Virus record (IMG/VR): IMGVR_UViG_3300037634_002400
Coordinates: 1 to 34,497 of that record
Source of the DNA: a virus
Taxonomy: Duplodnaviria > Caudoviricetes
Direction: 5' to 3' (one strand)
Length of the DNA stretch: 34,497 nt
Positions 14,935-23,509 of the stretch are shown here, one piece after another (the first letter of the stretch is position 1; every line of letters begins with the position of its first letter). The translations under genes and the position numbers were made by a program. A model generated the notes under the pieces. It made no database searches. It saw only the letters and a program-made list of their open reading frames with translations, and was not told where the DNA came from.

Positions 14935-14962
14935 ATTCTAGAAATAAAAACAAAAAAGTCTA
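14935..14962 (-). promoter_or_regulatory. Possible promoter giving a leaderless mRNA
   Basis: Minus strand TAGACT-16 nt-TAGAAT, 6 nt before the ATG at 14928. Confidence 0.4.
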
Positions 14963-14981: not shown

Positions 14982-15896
14982 CTTCAGCATGTCCGCCGCG
15001 CGCTTTGCTTTGGCAAAAACTAGCAATGCCGCTCCGCTGGCTGGTGGATCGCCACCAAACCCGACTTCTCACTCATCGTAGTTGCGTTATCGACTACGCT
15101 CAAACAGACTACGACGAGGAGTAGCTAGACTGTGCCGCGCTGCTATTAAATGCCAAGGTGACAGGAACGAGCACAAGCTCGTAAGGGAGCTTCTAGTGCC
15201 TTCGTCTACGCTTCAATGCGTAAACGACGAGGGCACCCTCTGATGAGGGTGTATTTAGCGAGGCCGTCTCACGCTCCCGCTATGTTCGACTAAAAATGTT
15301 TGAGGTCGGGGACCGACCATCATTTTTACCTCCGTCACTCGCTGTTCACCCTAATCAATTTGTTTGATAGCTCGTCGGGGCAAAGCCCTAGAGCCAAATG
15401 GATGATGGCTCCAACGAGAAAATAATATCACAACCCGTCCAAAAAAAAGAAGCACAAGAGACCGTTAGTTTTAGATGCGCGAGCGCAACAAGAAATAGGA
15501 GTCTTCACAAACCTCACTCCCTAAACGAGTGAGGGGAGGTGATGTTTGATCGACTGGTCTTTGTACTTCTTTCAAGCAAATCTGATGATTTGTTTTTTTC
15601 CTCGCTGACCCTAAACTATCAAGACTTTTTTATTCTTATCTTGAGAGCACTAAAGTGCAGTCATATGAGCGAAAAAATAGCAAGTCTCGTTACCACTCGC
15701 TAGCCCCAAAACAAAATGCCTAGTTTGTGTCGATTCATTTGTAAAAAGTTGTAACCGCAGTCGATATAATTTGCACTTACAACTTTTTACAAATAATAGC
15801 CAAAACTACAACAACGAGGTGCCCCGTTGCATAAAGAAGGGCATTTTGCCACGGGGTCTTGATAGTCCAGGGAACCCTTGTGATTACTATTTTTTT
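14982..15896. other. About 0.9-kb highly structured non-coding region (large ncRNA or structured origin candidate)
   Basis: No credible ORF; many local hairpins and nested long-range helices (15446-15463/15556-15572; 15615-15625/15856-15866; 15712-15720/15840-15848; 15737-15754/15777-15794). Lies between divergent operons. Confidence 0.6.
15737..15794. repeat. Perfect 18-bp inverted repeat with 22-nt spacer
   Basis: ATTTGTAAAAAGTTGTAA ... TTACAACTTTTTACAAAT. Confidence 0.95.
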
Positions 15897-15935
15897 GAAA
15901 TATATGACGATTAAGTTGTATATAAGGATAATAAT

Positions 15936-16163
15936 ATGATAATAAAAACCAACATAAACAACTGCAAGATCACGGTCGAAGCAGACTACACTCCAGAGCA
16001 ATCTGGGGACCTCGAGACCGAGTGGATAGATGAGGATCTAGACATTCGATCTATAGACATAGCGGCAAACGGTGAGCAAATCGCCGACATGCTACAGGAA
16101 TACGCCCCGGATTTAGTTGATCTGATCTGGGTAAAATCAATAGAAACAATAACCAAAAAATAA
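15936..16163 (+). CDS. Hypothetical acidic protein
   Basis: 75 aa; its stop abuts the start of the amidoligase gene. Confidence 0.7.
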   Translation: MIIKTNINNCKITVEADYTPEQSGDLETEWIDEDLDIRSIDIAANGEQIADMLQEYAPDLVDLIWVKSIETITKK

Positions 16164-17681
16164 ATGACATACATAACTCCACCAAACATTGACGACCCAG
16201 TAAAGGTAGCAACCCCACTGGACTACAACCTGGTATTCTTCCAGGGTAGCAACGATCAAATCAAGATACACCCAGCAATCGGAGTTAATCTCCCGATACA
16301 CAACTTGTTACTCAGAGACTATGAGATGACAAGCCGCCAAGCTCGAGAGATAATATATGAAATATCTCAGGAAAAAGTGGAAAAACAACCAGCTCTTTTG
16401 GCCAGTGCTATCCAGCAATGGAAATGGATGATGGACCACACAAGACTGGGCAAAGTCATCAAGACATATAGAGACGAAGCCCTCCTAGAGAAGTGGGGAT
16501 GCGGATCCTTTGTATGGGATGAAGATACAACAGTAAAAGAAATAGAGGCTATATTGCAAGAGGCTCTGTTCGATCCACTCAAAAAATGGAGATGCCTGAA
16601 TTGGAGAGCAATATGCTCAAAGTATGAGGACATCGTTATCGCCCAAGCAGTCCACAGAGAAATCAGTGCCTATGGGTGGAGGGTCGCAAAACTGGAGGAT
16701 ACGAGGTATAATGATTATCGGGAAATCCACATGATCGAATCAGACTGCAAGTGGTGCGAAGAATTGGAGGAGTATGACCTAAAGGACAACCTGTGGTGGT
16801 CAGAGGAAAACGCCCAATGGATAAATACATCCAGGACCGAACGTTTTTGTTACTGCGAAGACGTAGAGCAGTGGTTGAATATCGATGAATGTTTCTACTG
16901 TGACTACACGGACACATGGAGAACCACACCAGCAGAGAGTAGGGTTCTATCATATCACAGTAGGACACCAGTCCCTATCAAAGAACCACAAGAAGCCCAA
17001 TGGACAATTGGATTCGAGGTGGAAAAGGAGTCAGTCTATAACGAAGAGGCTGGCCATACAGTTACAAACGAGGGCGACATAGTAGAAGAACAACCCTTCT
17101 TCTGGAAGTGGGAAACAGATTCGTCTTGCGGAATCGAAGGCGTGTCGAACGTTTACGACCTCTTCAACTCAAAGGAAATCAGACAGGACATAACACTGTC
17201 AGATTACATCGACGCCCCAGTCGACACAAGGAGAGCAGGAGGTCACGTCTCAATCAAATGCAATGAATACACACGCTCGTTTGGTCTAGCTGAGATAAGA
17301 CCATACGCAGGTCTCATATACGCTCTATGGCGTTATCGACTAAAGTCGGAGTATTGTTCCAAAAACAAGAAACTAGACGAAGCTGCCTACCAAGACAGGT
17401 ATGACGTCATACGTGTAAGAGGAGTAAACTTCTTAGAGTTCAGACTGCCGTCCAGAGTAAAAAGCAAAAAGCAATTGATCTGGAGATACAAGCTCTTTCA
17501 CTGTACAATCCGTGCAATGAAAGAGTCAAGGCCATTCGACGACTATCTTCGAAACGCGTCTTCGCTCCTTGACGAAGTATACGGGCTAGAAAAGAAGGAC
17601 AAGATTCTCACCCTAGCAAAGTCGTTTGAAAATTATCTAATCAACGGAGTTATAAACTCCGAAATCTCAGAATTCATCTAA
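16164..17681 (+). CDS. Putative amidoligase (COOH-NH2 ligase, glutamine synthetase/GCS-like fold) with Cys-rich N-terminal repeats
   Basis: IGFEVEKE, ETDSSCGIEGVS, AGGHVSI, RY...FLEFRL motifs; CKWC/CYC/CFYC repeats upstream; adjacent to a GATase gene. Confidence 0.8.
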   Translation: MTYITPPNIDDPVKVATPLDYNLVFFQGSNDQIKIHPAIGVNLPIHNLLLRDYEMTSRQAREIIYEISQEKVEKQPALLASAIQQWKWMMDHTRLGKVIKTYRDEALLEKWGCGSFVWDEDTTVKEIEAILQEALFDPLKKWRCLNWRAICSKYEDIVIAQAVHREISAYGWRVAKLEDTRYNDYREIHMIESDCKWCEELEEYDLKDNLWWSEENAQWINTSRTERFCYCEDVEQWLNIDECFYCDYTDTWRTTPAESRVLSYHSRTPVPIKEPQEAQWTIGFEVEKESVYNEEAGHTVTNEGDIVEEQPFFWKWETDSSCGIEGVSNVYDLFNSKEIRQDITLSDYIDAPVDTRRAGGHVSIKCNEYTRSFGLAEIRPYAGLIYALWRYRLKSEYCSKNKKLDEAAYQDRYDVIRVRGVNFLEFRLPSRVKSKKQLIWRYKLFHCTIRAMKESRPFDDYLRNASSLLDEVYGLEKKDKILTLAKSFENYLINGVINSEISEFI

Positions 17682-17685
17682 TACA

Positions 17686-18765
17686 ATGTGCATAATAATA
17701 CATAAAGAACGCGCAAAGACGCAAATACCAGAGCTAATCATCGACAACGCCGAGCAAATCAATCCAGATGGATTCGGTATTGTCTTCCTAGACGACGGTG
17801 AGCTAGTCAAAACCACGGACTACGACAAAGCACGCAAACTAATGGCAATGAAACGGCCATACCTAGCACACTACCGCTTCGCTACCGTAGGCAAGGTCAA
17901 CAAAGACAACTGTCACCCGTTCCCGATACCCAACTCGGACGACGTACTATTCTCCAATGGTACAGTTCCACTGGGATCAAAGGACAAGACGGACACGGAG
18001 TGCGTAGCAGAGCTCCTTGAGGGTGAATGCCCAGAGGTTGTAGAAAAGATACTGTCCATGACAGAAACTCGATTCGCAATCGTAAACAGAGGTGTTTCAC
18101 AAAAGCCATCAGTCAAACGCTACGGCACTTGGCACAAGAAAGAAGGCGTGTGGTACTCCAAGTCCAACTGCTTTGCAAAACAAACACCAATGGGCTACTT
18201 CTGGAATGGAACGGTAAAGTCATACACAAGCAAAAGCGTCGAAGATGATTATGACGAGTTCGAGTGGGACGCCTACTCAAGTCATTACACATACAAGAAA
18301 GCTGAACCATTCCCTGCATATGGATGGAACGGTAATCACAAGGTTGCAGTCTACGGCACACTCAAAGCCGGACACGGTAACCACCATCTACTTCAGAAAA
18401 GAAGCGCGTTTGGTTATTCCAAAGACGGCTCAGAGTTCATCGGGTCAGGCTTCACCAACCAAGAATACAAGATGGAAATCATGGGATGCCCAATAGTCTT
18501 CAAGGATAAAACCGTCAAAGGATCACAAATCGCGGTTGAGATCTACGAAGTAAACAGCCCAACAGCCAGAGAAGCAATAGATATACTGGAAGGACATCCA
18601 CACACATACAGAAGAGAAATCATAGACTGCGTAGACCTAGAAGGTAACGTACACTCTTGTTGGCTATACTTCGGAAATGACGTAGAACCGTCAGAGTATA
18701 TTCAACACTCACCAGAATACACAAAGAAATCATATAAAATGCAAGAATACAACCTACAGGGGTAA
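17686..18765 (+). CDS. Class II glutamine amidotransferase fused to a gamma-glutamylcyclotransferase (GGCT/AIG2-like) domain
   Basis: N-terminal nucleophile M-C, NPDGFG, HYRFATVG, NCHPF, SNG, TDTE; C-terminal VAVYGTLKAGHGNHHLL...EIYEV...DILEGHPHTYRR. Confidence 0.88.
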   Translation: MCIIIHKERAKTQIPELIIDNAEQINPDGFGIVFLDDGELVKTTDYDKARKLMAMKRPYLAHYRFATVGKVNKDNCHPFPIPNSDDVLFSNGTVPLGSKDKTDTECVAELLEGECPEVVEKILSMTETRFAIVNRGVSQKPSVKRYGTWHKKEGVWYSKSNCFAKQTPMGYFWNGTVKSYTSKSVEDDYDEFEWDAYSSHYTYKKAEPFPAYGWNGNHKVAVYGTLKAGHGNHHLLQKRSAFGYSKDGSEFIGSGFTNQEYKMEIMGCPIVFKDKTVKGSQIAVEIYEVNSPTAREAIDILEGHPHTYRREIIDCVDLEGNVHSCWLYFGNDVEPSEYIQHSPEYTKKSYKMQEYNLQG

Positions 18766-18860
18766 AGATCTGGCAGTTGATCGAAGAAGGTATCATCACC
18801 ATACTTCTAGCGTTATTAACGCTAGTTAGCCTAGCTTCGATCGTACTCTCAGGATAACAC

Positions 18861-18906
18861 AAGGTAGCCACATCCAGTCAAGCATTGGGTGTGGTTGCTT
18901 TTTTTT
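18861..18906 (+). terminator. Intrinsic terminator of the amidoligase operon
   Basis: GGTAGCCACATCCAG-loop-TTGGGTGTGGTTGCT followed by a T run; G.U pairs fit a + strand RNA. Confidence 0.8.
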
Positions 18907-19415
18907 ACTGGTGACTCAAGAAACCCGCATAATGCGAGGGAATCCATATTTGTAACAAGACAAAGAATAATCACTCAAAGCGTTTAAACGTCACACAATT
19001 ATTTGAAACGTTTCTTACACGAACGTTTGGGAAGCACGTTTGGTTACATTTATTTTCATTTTTTTTTCAATTTTGTTACAACCGCTTAATGACCAACATT
19101 TTAATTTCAGCATGTCTAGCGCCTGGAGCCCTCCCGATAGTCGGTAGCTAGTGCTTGCTCGCTTACGGACGGCTGGTCCACTTCGTCGTTCCTCCTCGCT
19201 AGGAACCACCATCCGCTCACAAGGCTGCGCTTCTACCAATGGGTCGTCGCAGGGCCCGTGAGGAACTCGCTGCGCTCGTTATCAATGTTCCATTGATTGA
19301 TACGTCGTTCCTCCGCATCCCTCACTAACGGCCCAGCTCCTCCCCCTACGTTGTCCTCCGTGCCCCAGGCACGTCGACAGCCGCCCCAGGCGGCCCAGTC
19401 CTCCCGTTGGTCGGG

Positions 19416-19507
19416 CCTCGCTGCGCTCGGCCTCGCTTCGCTCGGGTTGCCTCGCTGCGCTCGGCTCTATTTACCTCGCTACGCTCGGGTCGCCTCGCTG
19501 CGCTCGG
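19416..19507 (-). repeat. Cluster 1: five copies of 15-mer CCTCGCT(G/T/A)CGCTCGG
   Basis: Units at 19416, 19431, 19450, 19474, 19493; minus strand reads CC-GA-GC-GNA-GC-GA-GG. Confidence 0.95.
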
Positions 19508-19672
19508 CTCAGAGACAGCTGTCTTTCTCTCTCTCTCTCCTCCCCTTCCCTAATTTTATCACATCAGTCAAGGTAGTATCGCTGCGCGATCTCCACCTTG
19601 ACTCGCTGTGAACAATGAGTACAGTTGAGAAGACACGACGTCAGGCTCAGAAACGATAACGCTAATAAGACA

Positions 19673-20038
19673 ATGAATAACGATACATACACAAAAGAAC
19701 GCAGACGGTGGGTACGCGACCAACAAGACATGATAAGCATTACTCCGTTAGGATATGAAGATCCAACGCTAGCAGATCTAGCGCTAGCAGACATAGACAG
19801 GCAGATACTAAATTCCCCAGAGACAGCTAGAGTTGAGGCCGCTGGGCAGCTTATCATCAACGAGATGCTACAAGAAAGGCACGAAGCACAGTTCGATGAA
19901 GATCACGAAGCGGCGTTGAGAGTTAACGACCTCTTCGATACCCTCCAGAGTATCCTAGACTACAGCCCTCACAAGCACCTGCAGATCATCCAGAATCTCC
20001 AAGAAGACTGGATCGTAAAGGCCTGTATGCGCCAGTAA
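19673..20038 (+). CDS. Orphan hypothetical protein (121 aa) between two repeat clusters
   Basis: ATG at 19673 preferred over the TTG at 19625; acidic helical-looking protein followed by a terminator. Confidence 0.7.
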   Translation: MNNDTYTKERRRWVRDQQDMISITPLGYEDPTLADLALADIDRQILNSPETARVEAAGQLIINEMLQERHEAQFDEDHEAALRVNDLFDTLQSILDYSPHKHLQIIQNLQEDWIVKACMRQ

Positions 20039-20041
20039 TTC

Positions 20042-20059
20042 AAAGGCTTCGGCCTTTTT
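20042..20059 (+). terminator. Intrinsic terminator with C(UUCG)G tetraloop
   Basis: AAAGGC-TTCG-GCC-TTTTT, 3 nt after the stop codon. Confidence 0.7.
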
Positions 20060-20131
20060 AAGAAGAGCAGCCGACGGCTGCAACCATTGAGGGATTTTCC
20101 TATCATCGGTGCCTAACGGCACCCCTGGTTA

Positions 20132-20189
20132 CCTCGCTGCGCTCGGGTTGCCTCGCTGCGCTCGGCTCTATTTACCTCGCTGCGCTCGG
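20132..20189 (-). repeat. Cluster 2: three copies of the 15-mer; 58-bp direct repeat of 19431-19488
   Basis: Units at 20132, 20151, 20175 with the same spacers (GTTG, CTCTATTTA); differs from 19431-19488 at only two loop-centre bases. Confidence 0.95.
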
Positions 20190-20292
20190 ATTGCCACTGC
20201 AGTCCTCTCACTGGGCATTCGCGATGCGATACCTTCGGTCCCTGCGCAAGCTCAGGCTGCCCGGTGCCGGCCAATGAGTAGCATAAAGGAAA

Positions 20293-20335
20293 GGGGGGGA
20301 GGGGGCCATTTTTTTTTTCAACCTGGGGCAAAAAA
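20293..20335. other. G-run/T-run element, candidate packaging (pac/terminus) region
   Basis: GGGGGGGAGGGGGCCATTTTTTTTTT...GGGGCAAAAAA at a sharp GC-to-AT transition about 0.7 kb upstream of the terminase genes. Role is inferred. Confidence 0.35.
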
Positions 20336-21052: not shown

Positions 21053-21640
21053 GTGAATAAAGATTTGAATATGTCAGAAGATAAAGACTTAGAGTTAGAT
21101 TTGTACTCAGATATAAGTGCTCGGGTCATTGAGAAAAAGCACTCAAAAGAAATGAGTGAATTTTTTGCCAGGAGCGACATGACTATATCGAACCCTGATC
21201 GGGTTACTGAGATTTTGTTTTTGTGGAGCCAAGGCTGGAGTCAAACAAAGATCTGCAAAAAGCTCAAGGCAGACCCTTACAGTGTGGGCACAATAATTGT
21301 AGAGTATGCCGACTTTGTTGGAAATTGGCGTGAATTAGGCGGAAAGTTGGCCGCTAGAGTTTATTTAAGGTTTGCTGATTTAGAAAATCAATTAATAGAC
21401 AAGGTTTCCGCCAAGCTAGAAAGCGGTGATCTGCAAGTTGGGTTTAAAGATTTAAAAGAGTTAAGCATAGCCAAAGCAAATGCAAGTAGAGAGGCATTAA
21501 CTGCTCGGGGTGAGGCCAGTAACATAAACGAAGAAAGGGTGGTTTACACCCAAGAGGATTACGAAAAGGCCGCAATGGACGCTGCCGAAAAGTTAAAACA
21601 AATGAAAAAAGCCAAAGTGGAGGGAATAACAGATGTATAG
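21053..21640 (+). CDS. terS: Putative terminase small subunit (HTH)
   Basis: HTH-like SQGWSQTKICKKLKADPYSVGTII plus helical body; two genes upstream of terL. The start may be the ATG at about 21070. Confidence 0.5.
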   Translation: MNKDLNMSEDKDLELDLYSDISARVIEKKHSKEMSEFFARSDMTISNPDRVTEILFLWSQGWSQTKICKKLKADPYSVGTIIVEYADFVGNWRELGGKLAARVYLRFADLENQLIDKVSAKLESGDLQVGFKDLKELSIAKANASREALTARGEASNINEERVVYTQEDYEKAAMDAAEKLKQMKKAKVEGITDV

Positions 21641-21851
21641 ATTTGCTGACGAAGACGAAGACGAAGACGAAGAACCAAATGAAAAAATACATGAAGGCCT
21701 AGGCCCAACTCTTGAAGAACTGTCAAAGTTGCATCTTGAAGAGTCTTGGGTTGTTGCCATTGATAATGGAAATCTAATAATCGTTGGCTCGTCTCCAGAG
21801 CAGCTGTTTAATGCTTTTTGCGCTGCCATTGAAGAAAATCTAGGGGGTTAA
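21633..21851 (+). CDS. Small acidic hypothetical protein
   Basis: 72 aa, DEDEDEDEE tract; overlaps both neighbours. Confidence 0.6.
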   Translation: MYRFADEDEDEDEEPNEKIHEGLGPTLEELSKLHLEESWVVAIDNGNLIIVGSSPEQLFNAFCAAIEENLGG

Positions 21852-23509
21852 TGAATTTAAAGTTTACAAAACACCCAGTGTTGCGAAGCCCAACTGATGA
21901 AGAAATAGTTTTTCTTGGTCAGACTGATTCTGCTTCTTTGAAGGCCCTGCACGAAGCCCACGAGGGGCGAATAGCTAGTGCTAATCGTGATCCATTGCGT
22001 TTTGGCTTTGAGTTAGAAGGCTGGGAAAGAATGCGCTGGGGGCTAGCGAACTATGGGGAATGTTTAACCCTTGGGGGGAATCGCAGCGGAAAAACAACCG
22101 GTTGTGCTAAAATGGTTATGGAAGCAGCGACTGAAAGTATGGATGGGCACATCGTATGTTTTAGTCAAAACGCTGATACTAGTGTAAAGATTCAACAGGC
22201 TGCGGTTTGGGAAATGATGCCCAAGGAGTTTAGGAAGAAGACCAAGGGCATTGAGGGGTACATTAATTTTTCAATGAAGAACGGTTTTACTGGTAGTAGT
22301 TTTATTTACCCAGATACTAGGACTAGGGTTGACTTTAAGACTTACACTCAATTTTCAAATAACCAAACAATTATAGAGGGTTTTCAATTTGGATTTAAGG
22401 AGCCCAAGGGTCTCAACATAGGTGTTTGGCTAGATGAGTATTTGGGTGATTCTACATTGGTAGACACCCTACGCTTTAGGCTAGCTACTAGAGACAGTAA
22501 AATGATTATTGGCTTTACGCCAATTGATGGGTACACCCCGTTTGTTTCTGATTATTTAAAGGGGGCTCAAATTCTTGAAACAAAGCCCGCGGAGCTATTG
22601 GGCGGCAGAGAGCTACCAGTTAAGCAGTACAGTCCAAACAGGGATGCTGCGGTAACGTATTTACATTCAATCGAAAACCCCTTTGGGGGATATCCTAGAT
22701 TAGCAAAAGATTTATCAAATCGTCCAGAAGAAGAAATATTAGTTCGGGCCTACGGTATGCCCGTTAGGTCTATGACAACCCTGTTGCCCCTTTTTAGTCC
22801 TGAAGTAAACGTACTATCTGACAAAACAAACAAATATGGGATGAAGTTCCCAGACATTAGCAACAACAAAAATTTCACCCACTACCAAGTAGTTGACCCT
22901 GCTGGTGCTAGAAATTATACGGCAATATGGGCTAGTGTTGATAAAACAGGAAACGTTTACATTGGACGGGAGTGGCCAGATAGAGACACCTACGGCGAGT
23001 GGGCGGTGTTTGGTGACCCTAAATGGAGGGTTGGCCCAGCTTCTAAGAAAGAAGGCTACGACGTAAAAGGATATGTTGATTTGTTCAAAGAAATCGAAGA
23101 AGAAATGGGGATCGAGGTTTTTGAAAGAATAGGAGATTGTCGTTATTTTGCTAGGGAAAACGAAAACAACGACGATTTGTTTACTTCGTTTGACGAAGAA
23201 GGAATGATTTTTTATCCAAGTGATGGCCGAAGCGAAGAAATTGGAATTACGGCTTTAGACGAATGGTTTAGCTACAATCCAAATGCCGAAATTGATAAAG
23301 CAAATAGACCTAGATGTTTTATTCACGCTAGTTGCGGCAACCTAATTGATTCCTTGGTCCACTATGGCGCTATGGGAAGAAGCGACGAGGCTTTAAAGGA
23401 TTTTTTTGATTTAATTCGTTATTTGCGAATGACGAACAGGGGAGAAGGACCAGATCACGTAACAAACAAAAGATTAGAAACAATTAAGATGAAAACAGGA
23501 GGATATTAG
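21851..23509 (+). CDS. terL: Terminase large subunit
   Basis: Walker A GGNRSGKT, Walker B VWLDE, coupling motif FTP, nuclease VVDPA and DFFDLIRY. Confidence 0.92.
   Translation: MNLKFTKHPVLRSPTDEEIVFLGQTDSASLKALHEAHEGRIASANRDPLRFGFELEGWERMRWGLANYGECLTLGGNRSGKTTGCAKMVMEAATESMDGHIVCFSQNADTSVKIQQAAVWEMMPKEFRKKTKGIEGYINFSMKNGFTGSSFIYPDTRTRVDFKTYTQFSNNQTIIEGFQFGFKEPKGLNIGVWLDEYLGDSTLVDTLRFRLATRDSKMIIGFTPIDGYTPFVSDYLKGAQILETKPAELLGGRELPVKQYSPNRDAAVTYLHSIENPFGGYPRLAKDLSNRPEEEILVRAYGMPVRSMTTLLPLFSPEVNVLSDKTNKYGMKFPDISNNKNFTHYQVVDPAGARNYTAIWASVDKTGNVYIGREWPDRDTYGEWAVFGDPKWRVGPASKKEGYDVKGYVDLFKEIEEEMGIEVFERIGDCRYFARENENNDDLFTSFDEEGMIFYPSDGRSEEIGITALDEWFSYNPNAEIDKANRPRCFIHASCGNLIDSLVHYGAMGRSDEALKDFFDLIRYLRMTNRGEGPDHVTNKRLETIKMKTGGY

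Follow-up and report, generated by a model that had tools for sequence, protein, structure and literature searches.

A fold-back of the minus strand at 19553..19615 is, with a probability that we put at about 0.55, a single-strand initiation or promoter signal that lies in a probable terminal repeat and is insulated by mini-hairpins. The window, by which we mean the whole stretch of DNA analyzed (34,497 nucleotides), is an entire viral contig of 34.5 kb from marine metagenomes. Its 33 ORFs include an SU10-type capsid, terL, collagen tail fibres, a T7-like primase-helicase, an exonuclease, endonuclease VII and gamma-glutamyl cyclotransferase, and no DNA polymerase, RNA polymerase or initiator gene was detected among them. 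The region of hairpins and core sits between the early operon (15936-18765) and the terminase genes, a plus-strand block at 21053..23509 that comprises a putative terS (21053-21640, assigned by position only), a small ORF, and terL (21851-23509; phrog_2). Within the region lies ORF 19673 (19673..20038, plus strand), whose acidic, helical product of 121 aa has a conserved N-terminus and a variable remainder, and for which no protein family, atlas or fold match was found (folds at E<=0.001). We dropped the reading of this product as an Ocr-like mimic: it has 23 D/E versus 12 K/R, but the atlas held no match and the structural model is of low confidence (pTM 0.27), again with no fold match at E<=0.001. 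The closest GenBank phage is C75C1 (terL 71%); none of the GenBank phages searched has a region homologous to the hairpin region of the window, and the open-licence literature yielded nothing on the host or termini of C75C1. The early block (15936-18765) is oriented towards the terminase genes in the window and away from them in C75C1 (L088 20149-22830), and the replication modules of the two differ (primase-helicase in the window, DnaB plus initiator in C75C1).

The initial annotation had drawn attention to eight exact copies of CCTCGCTNCGCTCGG and a divergent ninth, folding on the minus strand only. All are present, at 19416, 19431, 19450, 19474, 19493, 20132, 20151 and 20175, with the ninth at 19265 (two mismatches), against a mean of 0.11 and a maximum of 1 in shuffled sequence; a direct repeat of 64 bp (19431-19494 and 20132-20195) contains some of the eight, which therefore did not all arise independently. 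A parser for triloops on tandem GA/GA stems, run on both strands of 19106-20290, found 11 hairpins, every one of them on the minus strand (500 dinucleotide shuffles of the segment: mean 0.02, maximum 1), in agreement with the proposed strand specificity; the remaining 33,312 bases of the window hold one such hairpin per strand. The left array (19107..19508, minus strand) consists of shuffled words from a small set of GA/GA-stem mini-hairpins, namely six GC-GNA-GC units, a CC-AAC-GG word (19400-19414, overlooked in the initial annotation), two G-GAA-C words and GC-rich stems; the G-GA-G-GAA-C-GA-C words that had been recorded are found at 19185-19195 and 19303-19315. The right array (20040..20290, minus strand) has three units and other hairpins, and holds the 64-bp repeat of 19431-19494. 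The left array is not unusually stable by ViennaRNA (z of -0.7 on the minus strand and +0.3 on the plus strand), a modest value that is expected if the model leaves sheared tandem pairs unscored. Searching Rfam at gathering thresholds matched only tRNAs in the window, with chance matches alone in the hairpin and core region, and a scan of viral contigs for tandem units returned seven loci.

We compared eight relative loci (L008, L009, L010, L106, L113, L122, L145 and L147), of which L008/L113/L122 and L009/L147 are near-identical here. Their arrays likewise draw on a small word set that changes in number and in the side of the ORF on which it lies (L106, L145): the word CC-GA-CC-loop-GG-GA-GG carries loops of AAC, GAA, GCA or AAA, and the word GA-GC-loop-GC-GA carries GCA, GTA, GAA, ATG or ATA. 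Pairs adjoining the GA/GA steps flip between relatives with pairing retained, and no GA/GA hairpin word occurs on the plus strand across the nine loci formed by the window and its relatives. This covariation, with the strict strand bias in the eight relatives, strengthens the earlier proposal that folding as minus-strand single-stranded DNA is under selection. The grammar that accompanied the proposal, a GNA loop in which only the centre base varies, does not cover every loop, as AAC, AAA, ATA and ATG loops also occur. ANA and ANC loops closed by sheared pairs are known in DNA. Among GCNNNGC sequences, the portion of PMC13037366 available to us reports mini-hairpins for GNA loops only, so the additional loops weaken a strict GNA rule. 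Nor did the search of related genomes extend the arrays beyond close relatives, strict though the strand bias is in those: in the wider family (defined at about 70% for terL), a minus-strand GA/GA cluster is present at 2 of the 35 loci with enough upstream DNA (L008 and L010), and the exact unit has one copy in three close relatives. Little of the left array remains in L010 and L106, where the core stem persists. Judged by these comparisons, the arrays are a strain-variable accessory part and the conserved signal is the adjacent core.

The core is a 32-base fold-back motif, with its conserved part inside 19553-19615, made of a AGTCAAGGT/ACCTTGACT stem, an invariant GGTGGAG/ACTACC internal loop and an ATCGC-GCA-GCGAT tip. 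The hairpin previously noted at 19578-19590 is indeed there, as the one hairpin that had been recognized of a larger conserved core (19566-19603). Folding z scores are -5.0 on the minus strand and -3.5 on the plus strand, and in L008/L113/L122 and L106 GAA-capped GA/GA hairpins take the place of the tip while the stem is retained. The stem-loop lies on the template strand of the downstream ORF 19673, as it does in copies of the core in integrative conjugative elements (ICEs; discussed below). It is adjoined by a (CT)n/(GA)n pyrimidine-purine tract (19520..19551), and a CT tract of 12-18 nt is found in the window and in seven of the eight relative loci, the eighth (L009) starting inside the tract. 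The 3' arm of the core reads TTGACT, 7 nt, TAAAAT. Its right arm also holds a weak sigma-70-like double-strand site on the plus strand (19598..19625; TTGACT, 16 nt, TACAGT), which is degenerate in L008-L010, where the minus-strand TAnnnT is kept. We dropped readings of the core as an attC, dif-like, IS200/IS605-end, oriT or LexA-box element, given that the length of the tip varies; the repetition of the core before several genes and the existence of a separate oriT-like site (below) also count against all five.

The core recurs in other viruses. Looser scans of viral contigs gave at least 128 unique matches with flanks, of which a folding rule, set after the first batch had been inspected, labelled at least 23 as structured; the loosest scan contributed one new structured locus among the matches listed (L290). 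Among the matches listed, the structured set includes five inoviruses that encode Zot and Rep, each with the core on its coding (viral) strand, and four inoviruses have a TTG hexamer, 16 nt and TA(A/T)AAT. In microvirus MH572451 the core occupies an intergenic gap on the coding strand, and in a Rep-G2P element (L134) it is on the displaced, or viral, strand. Among the other structured matches listed, 10 of 18 have terL within 5 kb of the core, compared with 7 of the 73 unstructured matches listed with at least 4 kb of DNA (Fisher p 7e-5); the Walker-A prefilter used for the control missed 2 of 10 known terL genes, and with the prefilter applied on both sides 8 of the 18 structured matches listed are near terL (p 0.0015). 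Four near-structured matches (the second copy in L199, L232, L246 and L251) were left out of both control and test set; terL is nearby in L232 and in L247, a duplicate of L246. Relative to terL, the folding strand of the ten has the same sense in seven and the opposite sense, as in the window, in three. On this comparison the core recurs near terL in unrelated phages. The -35/-10 spacing is 16 nt in 7 of 21 unique core loci in other carriers, and most other cores lack neighbouring GA/GA arrays, with no more than one hairpin (0-1) inside 500 nt at 26 loci; the same is true of nearly all the TerL-linked cores. Short-query BLAST of the core in GenBank returned a single microvirus, all other matches being chance ones in coding DNA, and no cultured tailed phage of known ends was among the carriers.

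A scan of metagenomes with the conserved flank of the hairpin at 19578 found 46 core loci, 40 of them unrelated to the phage; the tip varies among these, and many loci are identical over 31-32 bases. A scan of GTDB found 27, of which 26 are labelled Verrucomicrobiota. Most bacterial cores are found some 200 nt upstream of RadC or DUF6573 genes, with an integrase and TrbI close by, and a paralogous copy stands ahead of DUF932. The folding strand serves as template for these RadC, DUF6573 and DUF932 genes, and the elements that bear the core encode integrase, TrbI and TrwC. The Termitidicoccus plasmid NZ_CP109797 has two copies. On the folding strand, TAnnnT follows TTGAnn by 5-8 nt in 57 of 60 unique contexts (2% in shuffles; L177 was excluded for too little flank), with variation mostly in the middle bases, and the stem beside this box covaries, with double changes at five of seven pairs, mostly between two subfamilies. 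A GAGC-loop-GCGAG mini-hairpin unit lies 51-56 nt 3' of the core in 51 of the 60 contexts, making the unit flagged in the initial annotation a regular companion of the core in these elements. These bacterial counts overstate independence, because the contexts come mostly from two ICE subfamilies.

The strand on which the bacterial cores fold is consistent. Of 16 copies in five genomes, 15 have a TrwC relaxase on their contig, and all 15 fold on the strand that is sense for the closest relaxase. In Opitutaceae MOBF ICEs (L182, L184, L187 and L189-L193) an oriT-like hairpin followed by TTGCGTCT precedes the relaxase by about 170-200 nt, on its sense strand; it is invariant in eight of eight relaxase upstream regions and lies on the folding strand for 15 of the 15 copies. 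According to PMC2943615, the transferred strand is recognized by MOBF relaxases through a hairpin that it forms 5' of nic; given this geometry and the strand of the hairpin and TTGCGTCT, the folding strand is probably the transferred strand. That reading depends on a nic placed from sequence and implies an unusual, relaxase-first geometry, and under the usual relaxase-last geometry the folding strand would be the retained one. Three bacterial cores lie within a long stem beside an HTH gene (L162 8001, L168 98 and L164 3928), two of them accompanied by a primase and integrase module and, by the template logic, lacking a gene downstream; cores of this type are candidate origins of a satellite-like element. 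The exact-tip version of the core hints weakly at a marine Opitutae host for the phage.

Depth values, read from assembled contigs and unitigs, place the core within a raised segment (19451..20169) that is probably a direct terminal repeat or a tandem amplification of a 701-bp unit. In X1 the segment stands at 20.3 and its flanks at 13.1 and 12.3; in X2, from the same sample and possibly the source of the window, the values are 28.5 versus 13.8 and 12.9, giving a ratio of 1.6-2.1x in the likely source sample. A second sample (X3) gave 8.2 versus 2.8-5.2, about twofold; among four low-depth samples at 2-5x, near the floor, X4 has no depth rise and X5-X7 no clear rise, and X11 is another strain. 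The raised unitig is bounded by a 42-bp exact repeat with depths of 33.8 and 45.9, close to flank plus segment, which disfavors a second phage sharing the segment and fits a terminal repeat or a tandem amplification alike; the two account equally for the doubled depth. To the right of the core is a G7AG5 run (20293..20305, plus strand), a candidate packaging or nicking signal that is kept family-wide upstream of terS/terL: a loose G-run is found at 42 of the 60 family loci in which 1 kb or more of DNA precedes terL, C75C1 included. Across the family the form is a G6-7[A/T]G5 run (L088 23095 in C75C1) with a C-run about 40 nt later, and to its left are strain-specific short repeats; a tRNA-Thr(TGT) lies upstream of terS in L008 (4800-4971), L009 and L147 and is missing from the strain of the window, and the approximately 90 nt preceding it resemble, by eye, what we take to be joined tmRNA 5' and 3' ends. 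Contig ends of the relatives showed no pile-up at one base. It is probable that the hairpin and core region adjoins a genome end.

A second GC-rich non-coding block (14984-15935), ahead of the early operon, is partly conserved in L010 and has folding z scores of -5.9 and -7.8 on the minus strand versus -4.2 and -6.7 on the plus strand, with a stem-loop of about 300 nt at 15600-15935. TCAGCATGTC occurs three times (14922, 14984 and 19107), and two of these copies start exactly where a GC-rich folding block begins. The block may be a further single-strand promoter or, near 14950, the true genome end, and the exposed stretch may be the whole early arm.

That the phage exposes its minus strand here is suggested by the core lying elsewhere, wherever its strand can be assigned, on the viral or the probable transferred strand, which is or would be single-stranded. 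Most simply, a nick or cut close to the G7AG5 run would let the minus strand be displaced while the terminal repeat is duplicated; alternatively, a left end situated just beyond the core could expose it as a 3' overhang. The exposed strand would then fold into the core and mini-hairpins, as sequence comparison suggests, and a host enzyme (most likely RNA polymerase, else a primase or primosome) would start RNA at the core, priming the plus strand rightwards through the repeat of about 0.7 kb, expressing ORF 19673, or both. Displacement from a nick at the G-run would fold the core some 0.7 kb away, and priming back to the nick would regenerate the repeat, which would match the size seen in the depth data. 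The arrays, which may be amplified and shuffled by recombination between short repeats, would exclude SSB, resist 3' exonucleases and slow re-annealing, in keeping with the poor SSB binding and exonuclease resistance of mini-hairpins described in the accessible part of PMC13037366. Host RNA polymerase serves both transcription and priming at Frpo and many sso elements, according to the portions of PMC9849209, PMC12672017 and PMC4595007 at hand. The -35-like and -10-like boxes of the core are separated by 7 nt in the window and by 5-8 nt in the ICE copies, rather than by 16-18 nt, a short spacing that may be tolerable because sigma region 4 is reported, in an excerpt of PMC7948647, to be dispensable at the M13 origin. 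Host RNA polymerase at the core is a candidate only, because six of the nine tabulated TerL-linked cores are without a -10 box at 14-19 nt. Of the three roles that the initial annotation had offered for the arrays (a priming or origin platform, an ejection or packaging signal, and a protein-binding decoy), the first fares best, with the amendment that it belongs to the conserved core and that the array is accessory.

Two other explanations seem to us unlikely, and about equally so. One is that the arrays only shield a left-end 3' overhang against nucleases, as a telomere-like cap to which the core is incidental. Three linear Streptomyces plasmids carry arrays of the same unit (2, 13 and 4 copies) within their initial 700 nt, with GNA on the 3'-overhang strand, and Streptomyces telomere loops are described, in the available parts of PMC5449611 and PMC7205883, as GNA with sheared G:A. 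Yet in L010 and L106 the left array is nearly gone with the core stem still there, neither a terminal-protein gene nor a Tap primase family was detected among the 33 ORFs of the window, and a right array is also present 0.7 kb inward. The other is that the region is a captured fragment of a host mobile element carrying an ordinary double-strand promoter, with the arrays as slippage by-products and the depth as tandem amplification. The TTGACT-16-TACAGT site ahead of ORF 19673, the hypervariable and lineage-specific arrays and the 42-bp repeat bounding the raised unitig are as it would predict; however, the double-strand promoter is the part that degenerates in L008-L010 as the minus-strand TAnnnT is retained, the covariation and the zero plus-strand hairpins in nine loci need selection, and the core is found near terL again in unrelated phages.

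Considerably less probable is an internal origin or promoter that involves no end, in which the minus-strand structure would be extruded through supercoiling, the CT tract and SSB bound to the unstructured plus strand, N4-like with host enzymes: the conserved CT tract beside the core, the strand asymmetry and the failure to detect an initiator gene in the window agree with it, but extrusion would be costly with imperfect stems, and the terL link and depth rise are left unexplained. Least probable, by a small further step, is a structured non-coding RNA running leftward from an extended -10 site (TG-A-TAAAAT, 19556-19564), for which speak the retention of TGn-TAnAAT in the window, L008-L010 and L106 and the ability of tandem GA pairs to form in RNA too, and against which stand triloops instead of GNRA/UNCG tetraloops, the lack of an Rfam match, the absence of TGn from most ICE copies, and the presence of the core on the viral strand of single-stranded DNA viruses.

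More tentatively than the signal itself, at odds that we would place below even, the observations might be joined into one reading: an undescribed single-strand initiation motif (GGTGGAG...ACTACCTTG) would be common to inoviruses, microviruses, conjugative elements and many unrelated tailed phages, the last of which would set it beside the packaging site and regenerate a terminal repeat, or read their first genes off the displaced strand via host RNA polymerase; the early arm of the window (14984-20300) would then be a plasmid-like leading region in which the G-run replaces oriT. To our knowledge, terminal-repeat duplication and the start of expression at the incoming end are poorly understood in polymerase-less tailed phages outside T7, and a short motif common to single-stranded DNA viruses, conjugative elements and terminase-proximal DNA makes the question testable. 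The core also offers a marker by which single-strand origins can be searched for in inoviruses and in Verrucomicrobiota ICEs. A text search of the open-licence literature found nothing specific on the core motif or on such signals in tailed phages.

Several known systems resemble parts of this arrangement. CGAGCGTAGCGAG occurs in ColE1 at 1331, presumably within the primosome assembly region (pas), and the core motif is absent from ColE1. The G4 origin, RSF1010 ssiA and the N4 promoters share the GC-GNA-GC mini-hairpin chemistry (PMC13037366, in the part available), but here the hairpins form arrays of shuffled words. The N4 promoter analogy drawn in the initial annotation loses its footing, as no virion RNA polymerase was detected; a 1969-aa ORF matches nothing in Pfam or PHROG and nothing relevant in the PDB, and part of the genome may be missing from the contig. 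T7 has the SRL/SRR short repeats and an M-hairpin. Its type of terminal repeat likewise has a doubled segment, bordered by variable short repeats and located between the early and the packaging genes (PMC5923468, in excerpt), whereas the repeat here would be about 0.7 kb or more and would include an ORF and an sso-like core, with no phage RNA or DNA polymerase detected. Streptomyces telomeres have one-strand GNA loops with sheared pairs, as here (PMC5449611 and PMC7205883, both in part), and the hairpin grammar of the arrays is identical to that of the Streptomyces plasmid ends; those ends (L089 1-300, L090 1-700 and L091 1-300) are atypical telomeres of rep_cluster_1789 linear plasmids with the GA/GA-GNA unit, the L090 end being tandemly repeated. 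The window differs in having no Tap/Tpg-like gene or Palindrome I, and in belonging to a terminase-packaged genome, in which a 3' overhang on the hairpin strand is putative; the likeness is convergent chemistry of exposed single strands, not homology.

The closest likenesses are to rolling-circle and conjugative systems. As with rolling-circle sso elements, ICEBs1 sso1 and the M13 minus-strand origin (PMC4595007 and PMC7948647, available in part), a homologous core is intergenic on the viral strand of inoviruses and a microvirus, and several inovirus cores have canonical -35/-10 spacing; in contrast, no sequence match to a described sso was found, the tailed phage has its own primase-helicase, and sso activity is putative. 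With Frpo1/Frpo2 of F, ssi1-3 of ColIb-P9 and the class 2/3 single-stranded DNA promoters of pESBL, the core shares a template-strand fold-back before establishment-type genes, repeats within one element, and promoter boxes on the 3' arm (PMC9849209, PMC11541004 and PMC12672017, to the extent of the text available). It differs from them in its non-canonical box spacing of 5-8 nt, and in sitting beside the terminase genes of a tailed double-stranded DNA phage, flanked by mini-hairpin arrays. Core and unit are absent from the F leading region (NC_002483.1, 50-68 kb), giving no homology to the F Frpo, and a search of 10 text supplements of PMC11541004 did not find the motif. The core would work like Frpo or sso but is not homologous to Frpo. 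On the sequence evidence, we regard the feature as real, with a predicted Frpo/sso-like function in an unexpected setting, set apart from the known systems by its box spacing and by homology.
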